Positions 3,188-10,387 of a DNA stretch of 27,625 nucleotides are shown piece by piece; position 1 is the stretch's first letter; each line of letters starts with the position of its first letter. Source of the DNA: a virus (taxonomy: Duplodnaviria > Heunggongvirae > Uroviricota > Caudoviricetes); IMG/VR virus record IMGVR_UViG_2623620506_000008, positions 1 through 27,625 of that record; one strand, written 5' to 3'. Below the pieces are notes generated by a model. It ran no database searches, was not told where the DNA came from, and worked only from the letters and a program-made list of their open reading frames with translations. The position numbers were made by a program, and so were the translations under genes.

Positions 3188-3888
3188 CCTGCGTGCCCGG
3201 TCATGCCGTCCAGCGTCGGCGGTTTATCCCAGCGCACAAATTTATTCCGCATTTTGTAGTGGGAATCCCGAGTTCCGGCCCCTTCTATACGCCACCAGTA
3301 GCCCTCTGAACCAATCGACTCTGCGCGCGCCTGGGTGAGTGCTGTCGTGGCCCTGCCGATTTCGGTGCGGGCGATCATCTTCGCGCGGCTCTCCGCCACG
3401 TCGCCGGACTCCATAATCATCCGGTAGAGCGCGTCGGGGCGTTCACCGTTGATGACGGCTTCCATTGCACGCGCCTGGATATCACGAACGCGGTCGGCAG
3501 CCTCCAGCGGCAGAGATTTAATCAGCTGCACCTGGCGGGATACGATGTCCTGAGCCACGAACCCCACCGGCGTATTGCCGACGACATCACGTAGCCCCTC
3601 AGAGATTTCCTGCGATACCGAGCGCCACTGGTTCCACTCCTCCTGCTCAACCTGCAGGAACATGCGTTTGGCTACCCGGTCGGCCCAGTCGTCAATCAGC
3701 AGTGAGTAATCCATCAGCCGGGCGCTAACCTGCTCGGCGCTGACCTCCGAACCATCGTAAGAGTCCGTTACGATCGCCCCTACCTGCTGCGCTATCTCCT
3801 GTAGGCTTTTCTGATACTGGCGCTCCGATTTGCGGCGGAGGTTCGGTTTCAGATTCAGCCTCCTCCCATTCTGCTTTGGCATCTTCAA
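3130..3888 (-). CDS. Head morphogenesis protein (Mu F / SPP1 gp7-like)
   Basis: Position right after portal; probable true start is ATG at 3882 with AAGGA RBS (the track start is TTG). Confidence 0.6.
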   Translation of the reverse strand: MKMPKQNGRRLNLKPNLRRKSERQYQKSLQEIAQQVGAIVTDSYDGSEVSAEQVSARLMDYSLLIDDWADRVAKRMFLQVEQEEWNQWRSVSQEISEGLRDVVGNTPVGFVAQDIVSRQVQLIKSLPLEAADRVRDIQARAMEAVINGERPDALYRMIMESGDVAESRAKMIARTEIGRATTALTQARAESIGSEGYWWRIEGAGTRDSHYKMRNKFVRWDKPPTLDGMTGHAGCLPNCKCWPEVQVPPPRK

Positions 3889-5203
3889 TATCCTTGTCGG
3901 TGATAGAGCCGCCGATCCCGATGATGTCGGACAGGTTGCGGAGGTCGTTCAGAGCAGCGTGCTGCGGCATACCGATATCGCGTACGGCAGTCGCCAGGGC
4001 GGTGGCCACGTTACTCGCCATCGTCGCCCGGTCGGTATCCGACATCTCCCAGAGTTTATTGAACTCAAAGGTGAAGTCTTCCGGCAGAGGCTGACCAAAC
4101 AGGGAGCGCCAGGAGATGTCCAGCAGCCAGCGGATGTGCCGGCGCAGACGTCGTTCTTGCAGCGAGTTAACGCGGCTGTAGTAGTTCTCCAGATCCCCGT
4201 CGCCGGTGCTGAAACCGGATGGGGATTGTCCGAACAGACGCACCAGCGGGATCCCAGTTGCACCGGACACCTGCTCAGCAAAGCGCAGGATGACATCGGC
4301 GATGCCAGCGAACGAGTAGCTGTGGGTCTGGAATTCGTCTGACTTATCCATGATGGTCATGCCTTCGATGGTCTGAAACTCACGGATCATGTCCATGTGC
4401 TTCATCAGCCCCTCTTCCAGCGTGCCGCCAGTGGCCAGAATCTTGCGCAGCCCGTCAATGCTGTACGTGCGCAGGTGCGCCTTGTGAATCAGCTGTGTGG
4501 TGCCGACGGTTGCGGTATCGAACGCCTGAATGCGCTCGTAGATACGCTCGACTACCGACATTCCCCAGCCGTTCTCGGTCTGCGCCTGCTGGAATGGCAG
4601 CGAGTCGCCTTCCATGCGGATAATGCGGCTGTGGTGGATCTTCCAGGGCGGGATCCCCTGCTGGTTGGTCACAACCTTGTAGAATTTCGGCTTGCCGAAC
4701 TCCGGGCCGTAATCGGTCACCAGGTCGTAATAGCTCGGGTTGACCTGCCAGCGGTCCAGGCACATCACCCCTTTAAACTGCCCCTCCTTGATGCGGTCAA
4801 GCTTCAGCGGGGTGGACATATCCTGCCCTTCCAGCAGCACCACCAGCAGCGCACCGCCGTAAAGACGAGACCACTTCAGTGTGTCATTCAGACCGTCCCA
4901 GATGGCAATGTCATCCCAGAACATCTCAAACTTACCCTTCTGTCCGGGCTCGAGCTTGGAGCTGATGTTTATGCCCGTGCGGGTCATATCATCAGCCATA
5001 GCGTCCACACCGGCGCCCACCAGAAACGATGAGCGATACGCAAATTCCAGCTGTACGCGGTTACGCGAGATGTAGCCAGGCTGGTAACCCCCACCGCTCT
5101 GGATGTTGGATGTATAGCCGCCGAGCTTGGCCGCGAAGTTGTTGTACCCGTCACGCGTCCGGACGGGCTTCTGTGCGCCGGTCTGGCGTTTCTTTCGGGA
5201 CAT
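3725..5203 (-). CDS. Portal protein
   Basis: 492-aa ORF immediately downstream of the large terminase, ATG at 5203 with GAGGGG RBS; size and position typical of portal. Confidence 0.7.
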   Translation of the reverse strand: MSRKKRQTGAQKPVRTRDGYNNFAAKLGGYTSNIQSGGGYQPGYISRNRVQLEFAYRSSFLVGAGVDAMADDMTRTGINISSKLEPGQKGKFEMFWDDIAIWDGLNDTLKWSRLYGGALLVVLLEGQDMSTPLKLDRIKEGQFKGVMCLDRWQVNPSYYDLVTDYGPEFGKPKFYKVVTNQQGIPPWKIHHSRIIRMEGDSLPFQQAQTENGWGMSVVERIYERIQAFDTATVGTTQLIHKAHLRTYSIDGLRKILATGGTLEEGLMKHMDMIREFQTIEGMTIMDKSDEFQTHSYSFAGIADVILRFAEQVSGATGIPLVRLFGQSPSGFSTGDGDLENYYSRVNSLQERRLRRHIRWLLDISWRSLFGQPLPEDFTFEFNKLWEMSDTDRATMASNVATALATAVRDIGMPQHAALNDLRNLSDIIGIGGSITDKDIEDAKAEWEEAESETEPPPQIGAPVSEKPTGDSAAGRGDRNGLLRWFGGQRRAG

Positions 5204-5215
5204 ATCCCCTCGCTG

Positions 5216-6421
5216 TTATTGTTTGCCCAGTGCGGCCCAGACGCCGAGATCGCCGACGCTTGTGATGTATCCATCCAGGGAATAACGCACGGCATCCCAC
5301 AGGTGGTTGTGCTTATCCACGACTACCGGCAGCACCTCGCCGGTCATGCGGTCGGTTTTATACGAGTACAGGCGCGCCTCATCGACCATGTGCTTACAGC
5401 GCTCATGGATGATGATCTCTTCGAACCCTTTCAGGTAGGTGATGCCGTCCTCAACGCTTCCCGGCCATTTGGTAGCGCCGTCGATGATGAAGCCCTGACG
5501 CGAAAGATAGCTGATGGTCTCCGGTCGGCTGCAGTCGCCATGGATAGGCCAGCGCCTGACCTCAGGCACCGAGTCATAGAACGACGCCATTTCGTCCAGT
5601 TCGACGCCGACGCCGTACGCTTCGTACTCGATGTAAAGCCTGGTGTCGATGATGAAGCAGCGAACCAGCGTGGAGGGATCGTTCGCAAAGCCGAAGTCAG
5701 CGCCAAAGAACAGGCGATCGGCGCTTTGCCACAGGTCGTCAGAGAATGCCTCAACCCGGTACTTGCCGGAGAAGATAACGGCCTCACTGAGCGCCTTCGG
5801 CAGCCCCAGCCAGATATGCTCGTAAGCCTCAAAGTCGATGCGTTTGCAGTATTCCATCTCATGCCTGAGCACGTCAGGAAAGAAGGCGTTATCGCAGTAG
5901 TTGACGCAGGTAATAATCGCTCCGCCATCAGGGGGGTCGGCGCGGTGCCGCTCCATCATGGCGTATGTCGGGTCGGTAGCTTCGCGCGGGTTGAACGACA
6001 CCCACACTTCGGATTTATTGGCGCGAACGGTCGGTCCGAGGATGTCCCAGCTGTCCTGCGATACGGTCTGCGCCTCCTCCACCCAGCATATTTTGATGCC
6101 GTGCATCGATTTTATGCTCTGGATGTTGTTGCGCAGGCCTTTGAAGGTAAACCGCGTGCCGTTGCTGCCCTCTATCTCGTTGTTCTTGACCTTGTAGAAG
6201 TGCGCAAGGCCAAGCGAGTGGATTTCAGCGTCCAGCAGCGCCAGCACCGAATCGTTAATAGAGTTCTGGAACTCACGAGCACACAGGATGATCATCGGCT
6301 CGATAGCGCCCAACAATACCAGCGCGCGGGCAATCTCTACCGACTTGCCGCCGCCACGGCCACCATACGTCCAGCGCCAGCGGACAGAGCCTATCGGTGC
6401 GTCGTACAGCGTCCCGAGCAC
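5216..6421 (-). CDS. terL: Terminase large subunit
   Basis: Walker A-like GGRGGGKS near the N-terminus, acidic nuclease-type C-terminal half, follows the small subunit; start appears to be GTG. Confidence 0.85.
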
Positions 6422-6456: not shown

Positions 6457-7164
6457 TTATTGTTGGGCTGTCTGCTTTCCCTCGCGCAGCTTATCCATGT
6501 GCGCCGCCCACGCTTCAGGCGGGCAGTTCGACGGCGTGACGATGCAGACCTTTCCGTAGCTCAAACCAGCCAGATCGACATTCACTTCCGTTTTGTTGCT
6601 CATGTCGATGCCGGTCAGCTGCGCGGCGTTCTTGATGTTCGGGGCTACCTGCCCAAACTTTTCAGCGTCCAGCGCGGCTTTAGCCGATTTGTAGGAGAGT
6701 TCAGCCAGGTCCTTCGCATCGAATGATACGAGCAGCGCGGCATCCTGACGCAGCTCTCTGATGCGCCTGCGCACATCCGGGCGTTTGAACAGTATCGAGG
6801 CTTGGGAATCAGCGCGTGAAGGAGAATAGCCCGCGCATATCGCCGCTTCTTTCTGCGGCATGCCCCGCGCGATGTTCTGCGCAAACTGCTCATGCTGAGG
6901 CTTAAGGATGCCTGCGTTTTCCTGCGCAGTATCGCCCTCAGCTGGTGTAGATGCTTCAACCACTACCACATGCGGCATCTGGCTTTGCGCAGTTGTGCGC
7001 ACTTCCTTGTGCGCAGTTTTTTGCGCAGCTGGCTTTTTGATGTACCTGCGCGCAGATGTGTAATTCAGTCCCTGCGCTTCGCACCACTCTTTCGGCGATA
7101 TACCCGTTTTGGCATGCTCGGCGAGGAACCGTTTTTGGAGGTCTCCCCAGTCCGGTTTAGCCAT
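6457..7164 (-). CDS. terS: Terminase small subunit
   Basis: 235-aa ORF with N-terminal HTH-like segment, immediately upstream of terL; ATG at 7164 with GGAG RBS. Confidence 0.65.
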
Positions 7165-7250
7165 AGGTTACTCCGTTCTATCCCCTCTAAGGGATGCGAG
7201 TTACTTTATCCCCAAGTTGGGATAGAGCCATTACGATGGGACTGCCCATG

Positions 7251-7272
7251 GTGATGGCAATAAAAAACCGCC
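7251..7272 (-). terminator. Rho-independent terminator after the 62-aa gene
   Basis: Minus-strand CCGCC-TCCG-GGCGG stem followed by TTTTTTATT, just 3' of the ORF ending at 7302. Confidence 0.45.
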
Positions 7273-7301
7273 CGGAGGCGGCTGGATATAATTGGTGAGT
7301 T

Positions 7302-7490
7302 TTATTTCTTCAAGGCTGCCTGGATAGCATCAGCCAGCTTTTCGATCCTGTCTGTAGCTTGATCTAAGTTACTATGCATCACTCCACCAGAACCTGCCGA
7401 AGCTTTTACTATTTCAAGGGCAGCCTGTACTGCAAGTAAACGTTGTCTGTCCTTCGTCGATACTGTGTTACCAAAATAACCGTCTAACAT
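7302..7490 (-). CDS. Small hypothetical protein (moron between lysis cassette and terminase)
   Basis: 62-aa ORF, ATG at 7490 with strong AAGGGAG RBS, own terminator, GC lower than neighbours. Confidence 0.5.
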   Translation of the reverse strand: MLDGYFGNTVSTKDRQRLLAVQAALEIVKASAGSGGVMHSNLDQATDRIEKLADAIQAALKK

Positions 7491-7579
7491 GATGCTCCCT
7501 TATTTGTTACGATAAGTTAAGTTTCAAGAGCATAATGTAGGTAGGCTCATAGATTTCAAGGGCAAATCCCACCAAAATT

Positions 7580-7840
7580 TTATTGATGTGATGCTCGCTC
7601 AGTTTCTACATTCCTGATACCGACCTTATCAATATTGCACTGGCCCAGCGCCGATAGCAGACTGACATTCAGATCCAGACTGGCCCCGTAGGTCAGCGGT
7701 TCGGGAATGGCAGGCTGTGGTGTTTCAGCTGTCAGGTTCGCCGGCAGCGGCACCACCGGCACCTGCACGTAAACTGTCCGCGTATTCCCGCAACCGGTCA
7801 GCAGCTGCAGGAGGCACAGGCCGACGAGCGCAATCATCAT
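7580..7840 (-). CDS. Rz1: o-spanin (Rz1-like outer-membrane lipoprotein)
   Basis: Signal peptide MMIALVGLCLLQLLTGC with LTGC lipobox, proline-rich mature part, starts inside Rz in another frame. The ORF track extends it to 7906; Met at 7840 is preferred. Confidence 0.6.
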   Translation of the reverse strand: MMIALVGLCLLQLLTGCGNTRTVYVQVPVVPLPANLTAETPQPAIPEPLTYGASLDLNVSLLSALGQCNIDKVGIRNVETERASHQ

Positions 7841-8117
7841 CCGCAACAGCCACTTTGATATCTGCCTGGGCTCTCTGGGATTCCAGTGCGATCTTGTTCT
7901 TTGCATCCTGGTTGGCCTCTGAAATTGCGTTGATGATGTTCACGGCCTGAATGACGTTGGCGGTGATCGCCCCAGCGGCGTTAGCGCTCTGCTCAGCAGC
8001 ATCAGCGCGTTTCTTTTCCGCCTGGTACTTATCGTGGTAGTGACCAGCAGACCAGATGATTGCGCCGATAGCAGCCAGCAGGAACGCGGCGATAACAGCC
8101 TTATAGCGCAGGCTCAT
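7725..8117 (-). CDS. Rz: i-spanin (Rz-like)
   Basis: N-terminal transmembrane segment, then a charged coiled-coil-like region; ATG overlaps the endolysin stop (ATGA). Confidence 0.65.
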   Translation of the reverse strand: MSLRYKAVIAAFLLAAIGAIIWSAGHYHDKYQAEKKRADAAEQSANAAGAITANVIQAVNIINAISEANQDAKNKIALESQRAQADIKVAVADDDCARRPVPPAAADRLREYADSLRAGAGGAAAGEPDS

Positions 8118-8590
8118 GATTTGGGCTCCGCAATGAAACCACCAGCTTCTTCGAACTTCTTAAGGAGGTTCTCGATTTTGTGTTCGTGCTGACCATAGCC
8201 GGCGCCGGGGAGTGATGCCCAGATGTTGCTGCAGCGGTCAATGGCCTGCCGGATGTTGCCGTCGTCGATGAGCTGCAGTGCGCGACGCTCTTTAATCTGC
8301 TGTAGAGCCACCGCATCCTGGCTGGCCGGCGAGAAATCTTTCAGGCCCAGCTGTTTGCGGTAAGCATCCCAGTAGCGGGACAGCAGCTGATAGCGGCCGG
8401 CGGCCGTTGACTTCAGTTTCGGGTTAAGCGTGATCAGTTTGCGGGGGTGATCGTCGTAGCTGGTAAACAGCGAGCCGCCTACAATCACGTCATAGCCGCG
8501 GTTGCGGGTTGGCTGCCCGGGCTTATCAGTGCCTTCTGACCACGCCAGCATGTCCAGGAATGCGGTGCGCTGAGGATTAGTGCTTTGCAT
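8114..8590 (-). CDS. R: Endolysin, lambda R-like lytic transglycosylase
   Basis: Strong similarity to recalled lambda R (AFLDMLAWSEGTD, GYDVIVGG, HPRKL, NPKLKSTAAGRYQLL, QAIDRCSNIWASLPGAGYGQ). Confidence 0.9.
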   Translation of the reverse strand: MQSTNPQRTAFLDMLAWSEGTDKPGQPTRNRGYDVIVGGSLFTSYDDHPRKLITLNPKLKSTAAGRYQLLSRYWDAYRKQLGLKDFSPASQDAVALQQIKERRALQLIDDGNIRQAIDRCSNIWASLPGAGYGQHEHKIENLLKKFEEAGGFIAEPKS

Positions 8591-8865
8591 TATTCAGCCC
8601 TTACAACCTTTGCCAGGTTACCTTTGGCGCGCCATACCGCCGCGCATATCGCCAGATTGAGGAACAGCTCGCCCGGGTCTACGTACACGTAATGGCCGAG
8701 CAGGATGCGGAACGCGGTAAAGCCCGCGGCCAGGATCAGGAGGTAAGCCATCCAGGCGTAGCCCGGTCGGTGCTTTCGTCCTGTCTTACTGAAGAACATC
8801 AGGCGCATCACGATCGCCATGCATACGACCGCGTTTGCGTCCAGGATGACGGTTTGCCATGTCAT
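8590..8865 (-). CDS. Small lysis-cassette membrane protein (holin or antiholin candidate)
   Basis: 91-aa ORF with two or three hydrophobic segments, between the putative holin and endolysin. Confidence 0.4.
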   Translation of the reverse strand: MTWQTVILDANAVVCMAIVMRLMFFSKTGRKHRPGYAWMAYLLILAAGFTAFRILLGHYVYVDPGELFLNLAICAAVWRAKGNLAKVVRAE

Positions 8866-9311
8866 TTACCTTCCTCCTCCAGCCCTGGCATCTTGCCGCG
8901 CCGTGATTTGGCGACGATACGAAGCAGGACTGCGACGGAAATGGAAGCAGCAACAAGGGCGCCCACGTTCGGGGATACTTCGATGCTCGCCGGCGGCGTC
9001 AGCAGGCCCAGGGCGGCGTTAATCACCCCGGCCAGAATCTTCGCCATGGGTATGGAGAAGAACACGCCGCCGATAAATGAGATGACCGCGAACAGCATCT
9101 GCTTCCAGAGTTGGTGAGGTTCCGAGGTCAGCACGTACATTGCCGCCCCTGCAAGGGCGCACAACATTACGCCGGGCGTCGCCTCCGGGAACATTGAAGC
9201 GAAGGTGATCCCCACCGTTGCGGAAGTCACTCCACTGGCAATTGTGATTGGCTCAGCCATATGTATTCCGTGTGTAATTGAGGTCAGGCTCTCGGGCTGC
9301 ATTAACAACAA
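8862..9311 (-). CDS. Putative holin
   Basis: Several predicted transmembrane segments, charged C-terminus, first gene of the lysis cassette; real start probably ATG at 9302 or 9260. Confidence 0.5.
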   Translation of the reverse strand: MLLMQPESLTSITHGIHMAEPITIASGVTSATVGITFASMFPEATPGVMLCALAGAAMYVLTSEPHQLWKQMLFAVISFIGGVFFSIPMAKILAGVINAALGLLTPPASIEVSPNVGALVAASISVAVLLRIVAKSRRGKMPGLEEEGK

Positions 9312-9604: not shown

Positions 9605-10387
9605 TTATCGAGTTATTGCTCGCAGCTGCGATTCGGCCCACGCTTCTTCCATGTCGAATTTGGTGATCAGCCGGTCGTAAAACGGCTTCACTGACTTTTT
9701 CCAGGTGTCCAGAGTAATGGCGTCAGTAATCATGCATACAGCCGCATATGCCTCAGTCGAGGGGATCCGCTCGTATCCGCGCCCGCCGCAGCGTTTACAG
9801 TCGGCCAGCACCGGCACACCCTGCTTCTCAGTCAGGTCCTGATTCACCGCCTTTCCCCTCCCGTGGCAATCGCTGCATGCTGCACTGACCTGCCCGGCCC
9901 CCTTACACTTTTGGCAAAGCACCCTCACGGTCTCCTGGACCTTGATCATCCCGGCCACCTTCATCTTACCTTCCGGCTTACGGAATTTATTGGTGAACAC
10001 GTCAGCCTCGATGAACCCCTGCCCTGCGCAGCAATCGCATTGCTTCACACTGGCGGCGCTGCGGGAGTAGTCTTCAAAAGCGAAGGTGGCCAGTTGGCGC
10101 ATCACCAGCGGTTTAATCCCAGCGTCCAGCTTGCGCAGGGCCGCCACGCTATCGCATTTGGTCAACGCATACTGGGCCAGAAGCTCGATCGCCCTCTCCC
10201 GATCGTTGTTGCTGATGCCCATCTTTCCGAGAAAGGCACTGTAGCCCATGGCGGCGCGTTCCTGGGTCATGCCCATGGCTGCCATGATGTCTGTGCCGGT
10301 CAGTAAATCTGAAGCCGTAGCGCGCGGAGAATCGCTAATCAGCGTCGATTTGGCAAAGTGGTATTTCACGGTGTTTTCGAGGTTCAT
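9605..10387 (-). CDS. Q: Late-gene antitermination protein Q-like
   Basis: 260-aa ORF with clustered Cys motifs (CDCC, CQKCKG, CSDCHG, CKRCGG); sits between nin region and lysis cassette. Confidence 0.7.
   Translation of the reverse strand: MNLENTVKYHFAKSTLISDSPRATASDLLTGTDIMAAMGMTQERAAMGYSAFLGKMGISNNDRERAIELLAQYALTKCDSVAALRKLDAGIKPLVMRQLATFAFEDYSRSAASVKQCDCCAGQGFIEADVFTNKFRKPEGKMKVAGMIKVQETVRVLCQKCKGAGQVSAACSDCHGRGKAVNQDLTEKQGVPVLADCKRCGGRGYERIPSTEAYAAVCMITDAITLDTWKKSVKPFYDRLITKFDMEEAWAESQLRAITR

Follow-up and report, generated by a model that had tools for sequence, protein, structure and literature searches.

A phrog_5901 moron gene between the spanin and terminase genes of an Escherichia coli prophage, and the putative sigma-32-type promoter of its relatives

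A small gene between the spanin and terminase genes

The window, which is the whole 27,625-nucleotide stretch of DNA analysed here, carries its late genes on the minus strand. In the order listed here, they run from a Q antiterminator gene at the upstream end (9605-10387) through two holin-type ORFs (8862-9311 and 8590-8865), an endolysin (8114-8590) and Rz (7725-8117, DUF2570) with an embedded Rz1/LysC gene (PF23793, E = 2e-17; frame end at 7580), to terS (6457-7164, Terminase_2), terL (5216-6421) and the portal gene (3725-5203). Between Rz/Rz1 and terS, its downstream neighbour, lies an ORF on the same strand that begins with an ATG at 7490, ends with a TAA at 7302 and encodes 62 amino acids. 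A good Shine-Dalgarno sequence, AGGGAG, can be read at 7495-7500 on the minus strand, 4 nt before the ATG. The ORF is followed by an intrinsic terminator, GCCGCC-TCCG-GGCGG plus TTTTTT (7260-7283, minus strand; stem 7283-7266), with a predicted fold of -12.9 kcal/mol (z = -2.7). A preliminary description of this DNA, made from its letters, had reported an ORF with a very strong ribosome-binding site and its own terminator at this junction, and all three were recovered.

A moron has been defined as an obvious addition whose GC content differs from that of its neighbours and which has its own promoter and terminator (PMC3594210). The GC content is 0.39-0.46 over positions 7275-7650, as against 0.55-0.62 in the flanking Rz and terS genes. 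In Providencia phage PSTCR3, the deposited phage with the closest terS (68.6% identity), Rz is followed directly by terS across a 266-nt spacer, and no homologue of the 62-residue gene is found there. At the lysis-terminase junction, cargo of other kinds is present in further E. coli prophages. The same junction is occupied by homologues in unrelated phages, namely Pectobacterium phage ZF40 (gp38, which follows two genes, one Mom-like and one theta-subunit-like) and OS31 of Serratia (p32), and also in L003 and in metagenomic relatives. The gene is an insertion between genes that adjoin each other in a related phage, with a break in GC content and its own terminator. The comparison of lysis-terminase junctions for which the preliminary description had called, with the gene absent from PSTCR3 and present in ZF40, OS31 and L003, bears out its view of a moron cassette placed between the lysis genes and the terminase.

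Many E. coli assemblies contain an identical segment (approximately 50 blocks of the collection), and positions 7150-7700 showed zero variation among near-identical prophages in other assemblies, so these provide no comparative information. When 5426 complete E. coli genomes were searched by megablast, matches were confined to the Rz1 part and to the terminator-hairpin part, and the ORF itself had none.

A hairpin, CCATCACCATGGGCAGTCCCATCGTAATGG, stands directly after the terminator (7228-7257, minus strand). The terminator together with this CCATCAC hairpin recurs at 87-96% identity behind other cargo in E. coli prophages, ZF40 and Enterobacter phages, and the hairpin seems to be a boundary element shared by cassettes of the lysis-terminase junction. 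As a separate observation, the 140 nt from the ORF stop to the terS start (7177-7300, minus strand) hold three hairpins with a z of -4.15 (also in L161, L162 and L001), namely the terminator, CCATCAC..GTAATGG (7257-7228) and a long TATCCC/GGGATA-repeat hairpin (7226-7177). The region may mark the boundary of a cassette, or be a site of processing or of terS binding.

The 62-residue protein and its family

The match of the protein to the phrog_5901 profile is full-length (E = 6.1e-21), with residues 1-62 aligned to positions 1-69 of a 70-position profile; the family carries no functional annotation. A word-indexed search recovered 78 homologous clusters (Escherichia, Citrobacter, Enterobacter, Salmonella, Serratia, Pectobacterium, Dickeya, Yersinia and others), and an exhaustive profile search of 1.84 billion representatives recovered approximately 134 clusters at 50% identity, almost all from Enterobacterales. 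All clusters from the profile search are small stand-alone proteins of approximately 60-100 residues, and among these relatives there was no fusion and no link to a named family. Three invariant or near-invariant blocks, an N-terminal ML-x-x-Y, RLLAVQAALEI-K and LADAIQ-AL (LADAIQAAL), are separated by variable linkers. Relative to the closest divergent relatives, L003 and L006 (82-84% identical), dN/dS is 0.05-0.08 with dS above 1.3. By these sequence measures the ORF is a genuine gene under selection. Other phrog_5901 members, including ZF40 gp38 and OS31 p32, share its length class and its place after the lysis genes and before the terminase. The window protein, one of the shortest members (62 residues as against 65-80), has no counterpart of their variable acidic linker.

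An AF2 model built from a 62-sequence alignment is a helical hairpin of two amphipathic helices (residues 12-32 and 38-61; mean pLDDT 69.6). Direct reading of the 62 residues revealed neither a transmembrane segment nor a lipoprotein signal (no uncharged hydrophobic stretch and no lipobox), and together with the two predicted helices this agrees with the earlier impression of a helical, soluble product. A protein without membrane segment or lipobox is not a holin, antiholin or spanin, and these identities were therefore discarded. The homology and structure searches proposed in the preliminary description returned the phrog_5901 match and no informative fold match: Pfam, NCBIfam and PADLOC yielded nothing beyond coiled-coil-type noise below threshold, the best hit of a profile search of PDB sequences had an E of 1.8, and Foldseek with the AF2 model gave best E values of 2.9 against PDB and 1.6 against BFVD, where any helical hairpin would match equally. 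In size and predicted helix-loop-helix form the protein is like ColE1 Rop, which is among the weak Foldseek matches, and lambda CIII. However, there is no significant sequence or fold match to either (best E 2.9), and since the likeness is generic to helical hairpins we do not claim membership among regulators of the Rop/CIII type.

For comparison of gene contexts and upstream regions, we used 128 non-redundant family loci collected from viral and genome collections. A spanin, endolysin or holin gene is recognisable upstream, or a terminase gene downstream, in 68 of them (hereafter, prophage context); the other 60 have no recognisable phage neighbours and are apparently chromosomal. A T-run occurs within 100 nt after the stop codon in 63 of the 68 prophage-context loci.

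A heat-shock-type promoter motif upstream of family members

The E. coli sigma-32 consensus is CTTGAAA[11-15]CCCCATnT (PMC6699477). In the dnaK P1 scaffold of the sigma-32 open-complex structure, CTTGAA occupies -35 to -30, CC at -15/-14 forms an 'extended -10' and A is found at -11 (PMC10216364). We counted matches to this consensus (maximum 14; spacers of 12-14 nt) from -110 to -25 before the ATG. Scores of at least 12 were reached by 30 of the 128 family upstream regions, all in prophage context and 14 of them scoring 13, a count that overstates the number of independent observations because these class-1 loci are related by descent. The same threshold was reached by 0 of 4904 random 85-nt stretches from the same loci and by 2 of 1253 corresponding regions upstream of other ORFs; scores of at least 11 were found in 35 of the 68 prophage-context loci versus 1 of the 60 others. 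For calibration, eight E. coli K-12 heat-shock genes (dnaK, groS, htpG, clpP, lon, ibpA, clpB and hslV) scored 12-14 with spacers of 13-14 nt.

The class-1 motif, CTTGAAA-N13-CCCCATnT, stands at a fixed distance before the gene. Among the scoring sites the spacer is mostly 13 nt (12-14 overall), and the -10 element ends 38-48 nt before the ATG. These sites share the spacing of the E. coli RpoH promoters (dnaK P1, groS, htpG, ibpA, clpB, lon, hslV and clpP), reach scores of 12-13 as compared with 12-14, and have the same register as the dnaK P1 scaffold (PMC10216364). In a 27-sequence upstream alignment, only the -35 (cTTGaaAT) and -10 blocks are kept and the spacer varies, with the -10 columns reading CCCCAT(T/n)T(A). 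In L022, the one locus checked by hand, none of the hexamers 16-18 nt after TTGAAA (CATTTA, ATTTAC, TTTACA) is an acceptable sigma-70 -10 element. We consider it probable that the class-1 sites are sigma-32 promoters, and this apparent heat-shock type of the conserved promoter in relatives is new with respect to the preliminary description.

Over the 120 nt that precede their start codons, these prophage copies show a recurrent order of elements: 5' to 3', a long hairpin with interruptions, bordered by invariant CATTACA and GATAATG, then CCTTGAAAT, a variable 13-nt spacer, CCCCAT(T)T(A), the block TTG(A/T)(A/T)AC, a short leader hairpin rich in GC, the Shine-Dalgarno sequence (a purine-rich GGAG/GGGA block) and the ATG. 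The CATTACA/GATAATG hairpin lies at approximately -120 to -72 before the gene (L009, L011, L013, L022, L045, L056 and others), directly upstream of the sigma-32-like -35, with compensatory changes in 10 of 12 pairs and with U-G pairs on the sense strand. The class-1 leader hairpin, at the 5' end of the predicted transcript, shows compensatory changes in 4 of 5 predicted pairs. Neither the window region nor the hairpins and leaders of the relatives had a match in Rfam. A 37-nt version of the upstream hairpin, CATTACAGCAGGCATTCACTGAGTGCCTGTGATAATG, also recurs in several intergenic stretches near morons, one of them separating the Mom-like and theta-like genes of ZF40, and TGTGATAAT resembles an extended -10 promoter too.

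In approximately half of the prophage-borne copies the upstream region is differently built, so heat-shock control would not be universal in the family. One such group (L023, L031, L033, L037, L049, L063, L069, L070, L083 and L087) combines a TAATnT-type -10, within a conserved (G/C)NTAAT(C/G)TG block, with a following leader in which AACCTCC pairs with the Shine-Dalgarno sequence GGAGGTT across a loop of approximately 9-10 nt; where this hairpin is clearer, its energy is -11 to -17 kcal/mol. This pairing shows little covariation because the Shine-Dalgarno sequence is itself constrained. A clear anti-Shine-Dalgarno hairpin appears only in this second branch of the family, where it suggests possible translational control, perhaps temperature-dependent.

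The putative promoter region of the window and its repeats

Two TTTCAAGRGCA copies upstream of the gene had been noted earlier as possible promoter or regulator-binding elements. Both are present, copy 1 (TTTCAAGAGCATAAT) at 7522-7536 and copy 2 (TTTCAAGGGCAAAT) at 7554-7567, with a 10/11 shared core and starts 32 nt apart. Of 1000 dinucleotide shuffles of the 89-nt spacer, 10 contained an 11-mer pair with at most one mismatch. A third copy, an exact 12-mer, lies inside the ORF at 7411-7422, and a repeat of this length arose in 0 of 1000 when ORF and spacer were shuffled together; both figures are local and uncorrected for the 27.6 kb that had been scanned for features. The third copy consists of the codons GCC-CTT-GAA-ATA of the invariant A-L-E-I motif, and TTGAAA occurs there in only 11 of 127 family loci; it was therefore rejected as a functional element and attributed to a lineage-specific coincidence of codons.

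Read on the minus strand, the core of copy 2 is a -35 element, CTTGAAA (7554-7560), which is preceded by CC, and in the aligned register the perfect -35 is CCCTTGAAA (7562-7554). CTTGAAA matches the sigma-32 -35 at 7/7 positions and the sigma-70 TTGACA at 5/6, and copy 2 corresponds to the -35 box of the promoter kept at the same position in approximately half of the prophage-borne relatives. The core of copy 1, TTGAAAC (7521-7527, minus strand), aligns with the TTG(A/T)(A/T)AC block, which is TTGAAAC or TTGTAAC in relatives; copy 1 (CTCTTGAAAC) overlaps the predicted start and the first bases of the leader. L003 and L006 lack copy 1 and have GCTATGGGAAT in its place, and the likeness between the two copies beyond TTGAAA is specific to the window lineage. 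A second promoter using copy 1 as its -35 was rejected, as no -10 follows copy 1. According to these alignments, the 'direct repeat' is two different elements that share TTGAAA by chance and not a repeated operator, since copy 2 is a -35 box and copy 1 a start-site block. The earlier suggestion of promoter or regulator-binding elements thus survives for copy 2, as the -35 box of a conserved promoter-like site, and falls for the two copies as a repeated operator.

The -10 region, CTACATTAT (7532-7540, minus strand), is degenerate for sigma-32. CTACATTA matches CCCCATnT at 4/7 positions, which does not amount to a sigma-32 -10 element, after a spacer of 13 nt as in dnaK P1, lon, ibpA, clpB and hslV. 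The resulting total of 11/14 lies under all eight canonical promoters and is reached by approximately 0.6% of control stretches. C-12, A-11 and T-10 are retained, and two of the four C positions and T-8/A-7 are changed. The changes at -8 and -7 create CATTAT at 7537-7532, a sigma-70-like hexamer 16 nt after TTGAAA. The preliminary description had proposed promoter prediction for this region; in addition to the sigma-32 score, a consensus scan of 1.3 kb returned TTGAAA-16-CATTAT as its sole sigma-70-like match (9/12), where approximately one is expected by chance, at the position of the promoter conserved in relatives. Compared with the E. coli RpoH promoters, the window keeps the -35 and the spacing but not the -10, and the genes of the family are phage-borne and do not belong to core proteostasis.

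At the -10, L003 and L006 carry an intermediate, CCTCATGAT, and the nearest relative outside the window type (L008; 79% amino acid identity, same terS downstream) has kept TTTGAAA-13-CCCCACAT. Between the window and L003/L006 (64-66% identical overall, ungapped), the promoter part is apparently better kept than the leader, a comparison made by eye and subject to the caveat that synonymous sites are saturated at this distance. The simplest reading of these sequences is that the window promoter is a sigma-32-type site that drifted toward sigma-70 in the window lineage. From the -10 and the register with the dnaK P1 scaffold (PMC10216364), transcription is predicted to start near G7525, giving a 35-nt leader (7525-7491).

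This leader has no significant structure (-4.3 kcal/mol, z = -1.0), and a GCUCU-GGAGC pairing would need bases upstream of the predicted start; an RNA thermometer or Shine-Dalgarno-sequestering leader was rejected for the window on account of the insignificant fold. The counterpart of the relatives' CATTACA-stem-loop-GATAATG hairpin, CATCACATCAA..TTGGTGGGAT (7566-7593, minus strand), is also degenerate. It aligns with that element, overlaps the Rz1 stop codon and folds no better than shuffles (z = -0.2).

Interpretation and alternatives

Together, these observations appear to describe a self-contained moron cassette (7260-7560, minus strand) that a lambdoid E. coli prophage carries between its spanin genes and terS, and we give this explanation as a whole a probability of roughly 0.6. 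In this explanation, the cassette would be transcribed from its own promoter (-35 CTTGAAA at 7560-7554, -10 at approximately 7540-7532, start near 7525) into a monocistronic RNA of approximately 265 nt ending at 7260-7265, so that expression could occur while the prophage is repressed; in lytic growth the gene would also be reached by read-through from the Q-antiterminated late transcript. The promoter would be of sigma-32 (RpoH) ancestry, a type that appears intact in many relatives, and its -10 would have drifted from CCCCATTTA to CTACATTAT in the window lineage. Because of this drift, the window copy is more likely to be read by sigma-70, or possibly by both sigma factors, and to be less strictly heat-dependent.

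We suppose that the protein, probably a small helical bundle, acts by binding a protein partner from host or phage, a suggestion drawn from its size, fold and regulation. This modulator idea draws on the stress-type regulation of the relatives, on the invariant N-terminal ML-x-x-Y and on alanine-rich helix faces with conserved R17, Q22, E26, K29, D54 and Q57. The most likely role would lie in stress- or proteostasis-related host physiology, and not in lysis or packaging; it is proposed because of the putative heat-shock control in relatives. Extending this to the family, we tentatively suggest, at less than even odds, that phrog_5901 is a phage-borne extension of the host heat-shock regulon. 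Its ancestral and widespread form would be transcribed by E-sigma-32, its product would modulate proteostasis or stress (candidate targets being a chaperone, a protease or sigma-32 control) or sense infection-triggered heat shock, and the window copy would be a sigma-70-shifted derivative.

The alternative that survives best, although we regard it as doubtful, is that the window promoter is a still working sigma-32 promoter that places the gene in the heat-shock regulon of the strain. The perfect -35 (CCCTTGAAA), the 13-nt spacer, the kept C-12, A-11 and T-10 and the dnaK P1 register are consistent with this, and clpB, one of the canonical promoters, has an imperfect -10 too (CCTCATTT). However, with two of the four C positions and T-8/A-7 changed (4/7), the site scores 11, under all eight canonical promoters, and the changes create the sigma-70-type hexamer CATTAT.

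We consider it unlikely that the gene is an ordinary member of the late operon, transcribed only by Q-antiterminated polymerase and acting as a lysis or packaging accessory, with the window motif an inactive relic. Such an arrangement would fit the orientation shared with the late genes, the fixed post-spanin place in 68 loci, the degenerate -10 and the Q antiterminator gene upstream (9605-10387), owing to which the terminator would be read through. Against this stand the strong terminator directly before terS, the GC dip and the absence from a related phage, all moron traits, as well as a protein with neither membrane segment nor lipobox, the 60 of 128 non-redundant loci without recognisable lysis or terminase neighbours, and a promoter part that by eye seems better kept than the leader between the window and L003/L006.

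It is improbable that the two or three TTTCAAGRGCA copies are operators or iterons for the ORF or terS. The repeat is locally improbable (10/1000 and 0/1000 shuffles), but the pair is not conserved, with copy 1 absent from the closest divergent relatives, the internal copy is a codon coincidence (11/127 loci), there is no dyad symmetry, and a different conserved element, -35 box or start region, explains each upstream copy; the earlier idea of a regulator-binding repeat is not sustained. Finally, a chance open frame, to which the short length (62 residues) and the lack of a Pfam family might point, is refuted by the phrog_5901 match (E = 6e-21), 134 clusters, invariant motifs and dN/dS of 0.05-0.08.

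Prophages alter the phenotype of their hosts mainly through morons. To our knowledge, neither the function nor the regulation of most small morons is known. The phrog_5901 family combines a fixed insertion place and a recurrent terminator-hairpin boundary with, in many members, a promoter that by consensus is indistinguishable from host heat-shock promoters, which provides a testable hypothesis, namely that the RpoH regulon extends to prophage genes. The family also offers a natural promoter series, from canonical sigma-32 sites through hybrids to the sigma-70-like site of the window, that would show how mobile cassettes may retune their sigma-factor dependence. Taken alone, the window yields a modest result, an ordinary moron with a predicted promoter only; the conserved sigma-32-type promoter of the family is the single element that could make it more than ordinary. 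Like the lambdoid morons HK97 gene 15, lambda bor and lom (PMC3594210), it is an extra gene between conserved late genes, with differing GC content, its own promoter-like site, its own terminator and a distribution among unrelated phages. Unlike them, its family is uncharacterised and the promoter is of apparent sigma-32 heat-shock type in phrog_5901 relatives. A full-text literature search found no report of a sigma-32-controlled moron; a study of Salmonella prophage transcriptomes does not mention RpoH, with 'heat' and 'temperature' confined to methods text (PMC7067206).

Additional observations

Several features were noted beside the main analysis. In a Kosakonia cowanii chromosome (L140, 2913-4201), an HSP20/Ibp-like small heat-shock gene with a CTTGAAA-13-CATTATTT site of its own is followed, after approximately 600 nt, by a 73-residue family member, a single case and an anecdote, albeit one that points toward a stress role. 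Near family genes in L067 (5928-6251) and L079 (3318-3680), other ORFs of 107 and 120 residues are preceded by CTTGAAT-13/14-CCCCATTA sites scoring 12/14 and may be further heat-shock-type cassettes.

The terS coding region of the window contains four TGCGCA palindromes within 42 nt (6986-7027) and seven within 260 nt (also at 6768, 6878 and 6923), which may be pac or terS recognition repeats; over the whole window, TGCGCA occurs 23 times as against 15 expected, an excess that is not significant.

At seven chromosomal loci (L120, L123, L125, L128, L129, L133 and L148), a conserved tRNA-like gene of 77-79 nt lies approximately 80-160 nt upstream of the family gene. It has canonical acceptor, D and T arms and a TCCA end, and its anticodon region is irregular and variable; on orthologous loci ARAGORN assigned Gln, Thr, Lys or a 4-base anticodon, and the gene falls below the Rfam gathering score. 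Records titled Vagococcus sp. (L086/L150), Martelella alba (L093) and Chryseobacterium sp. (L112) carry family loci typical of Enterobacterales prophages and are probably contaminated or mislabelled assemblies.
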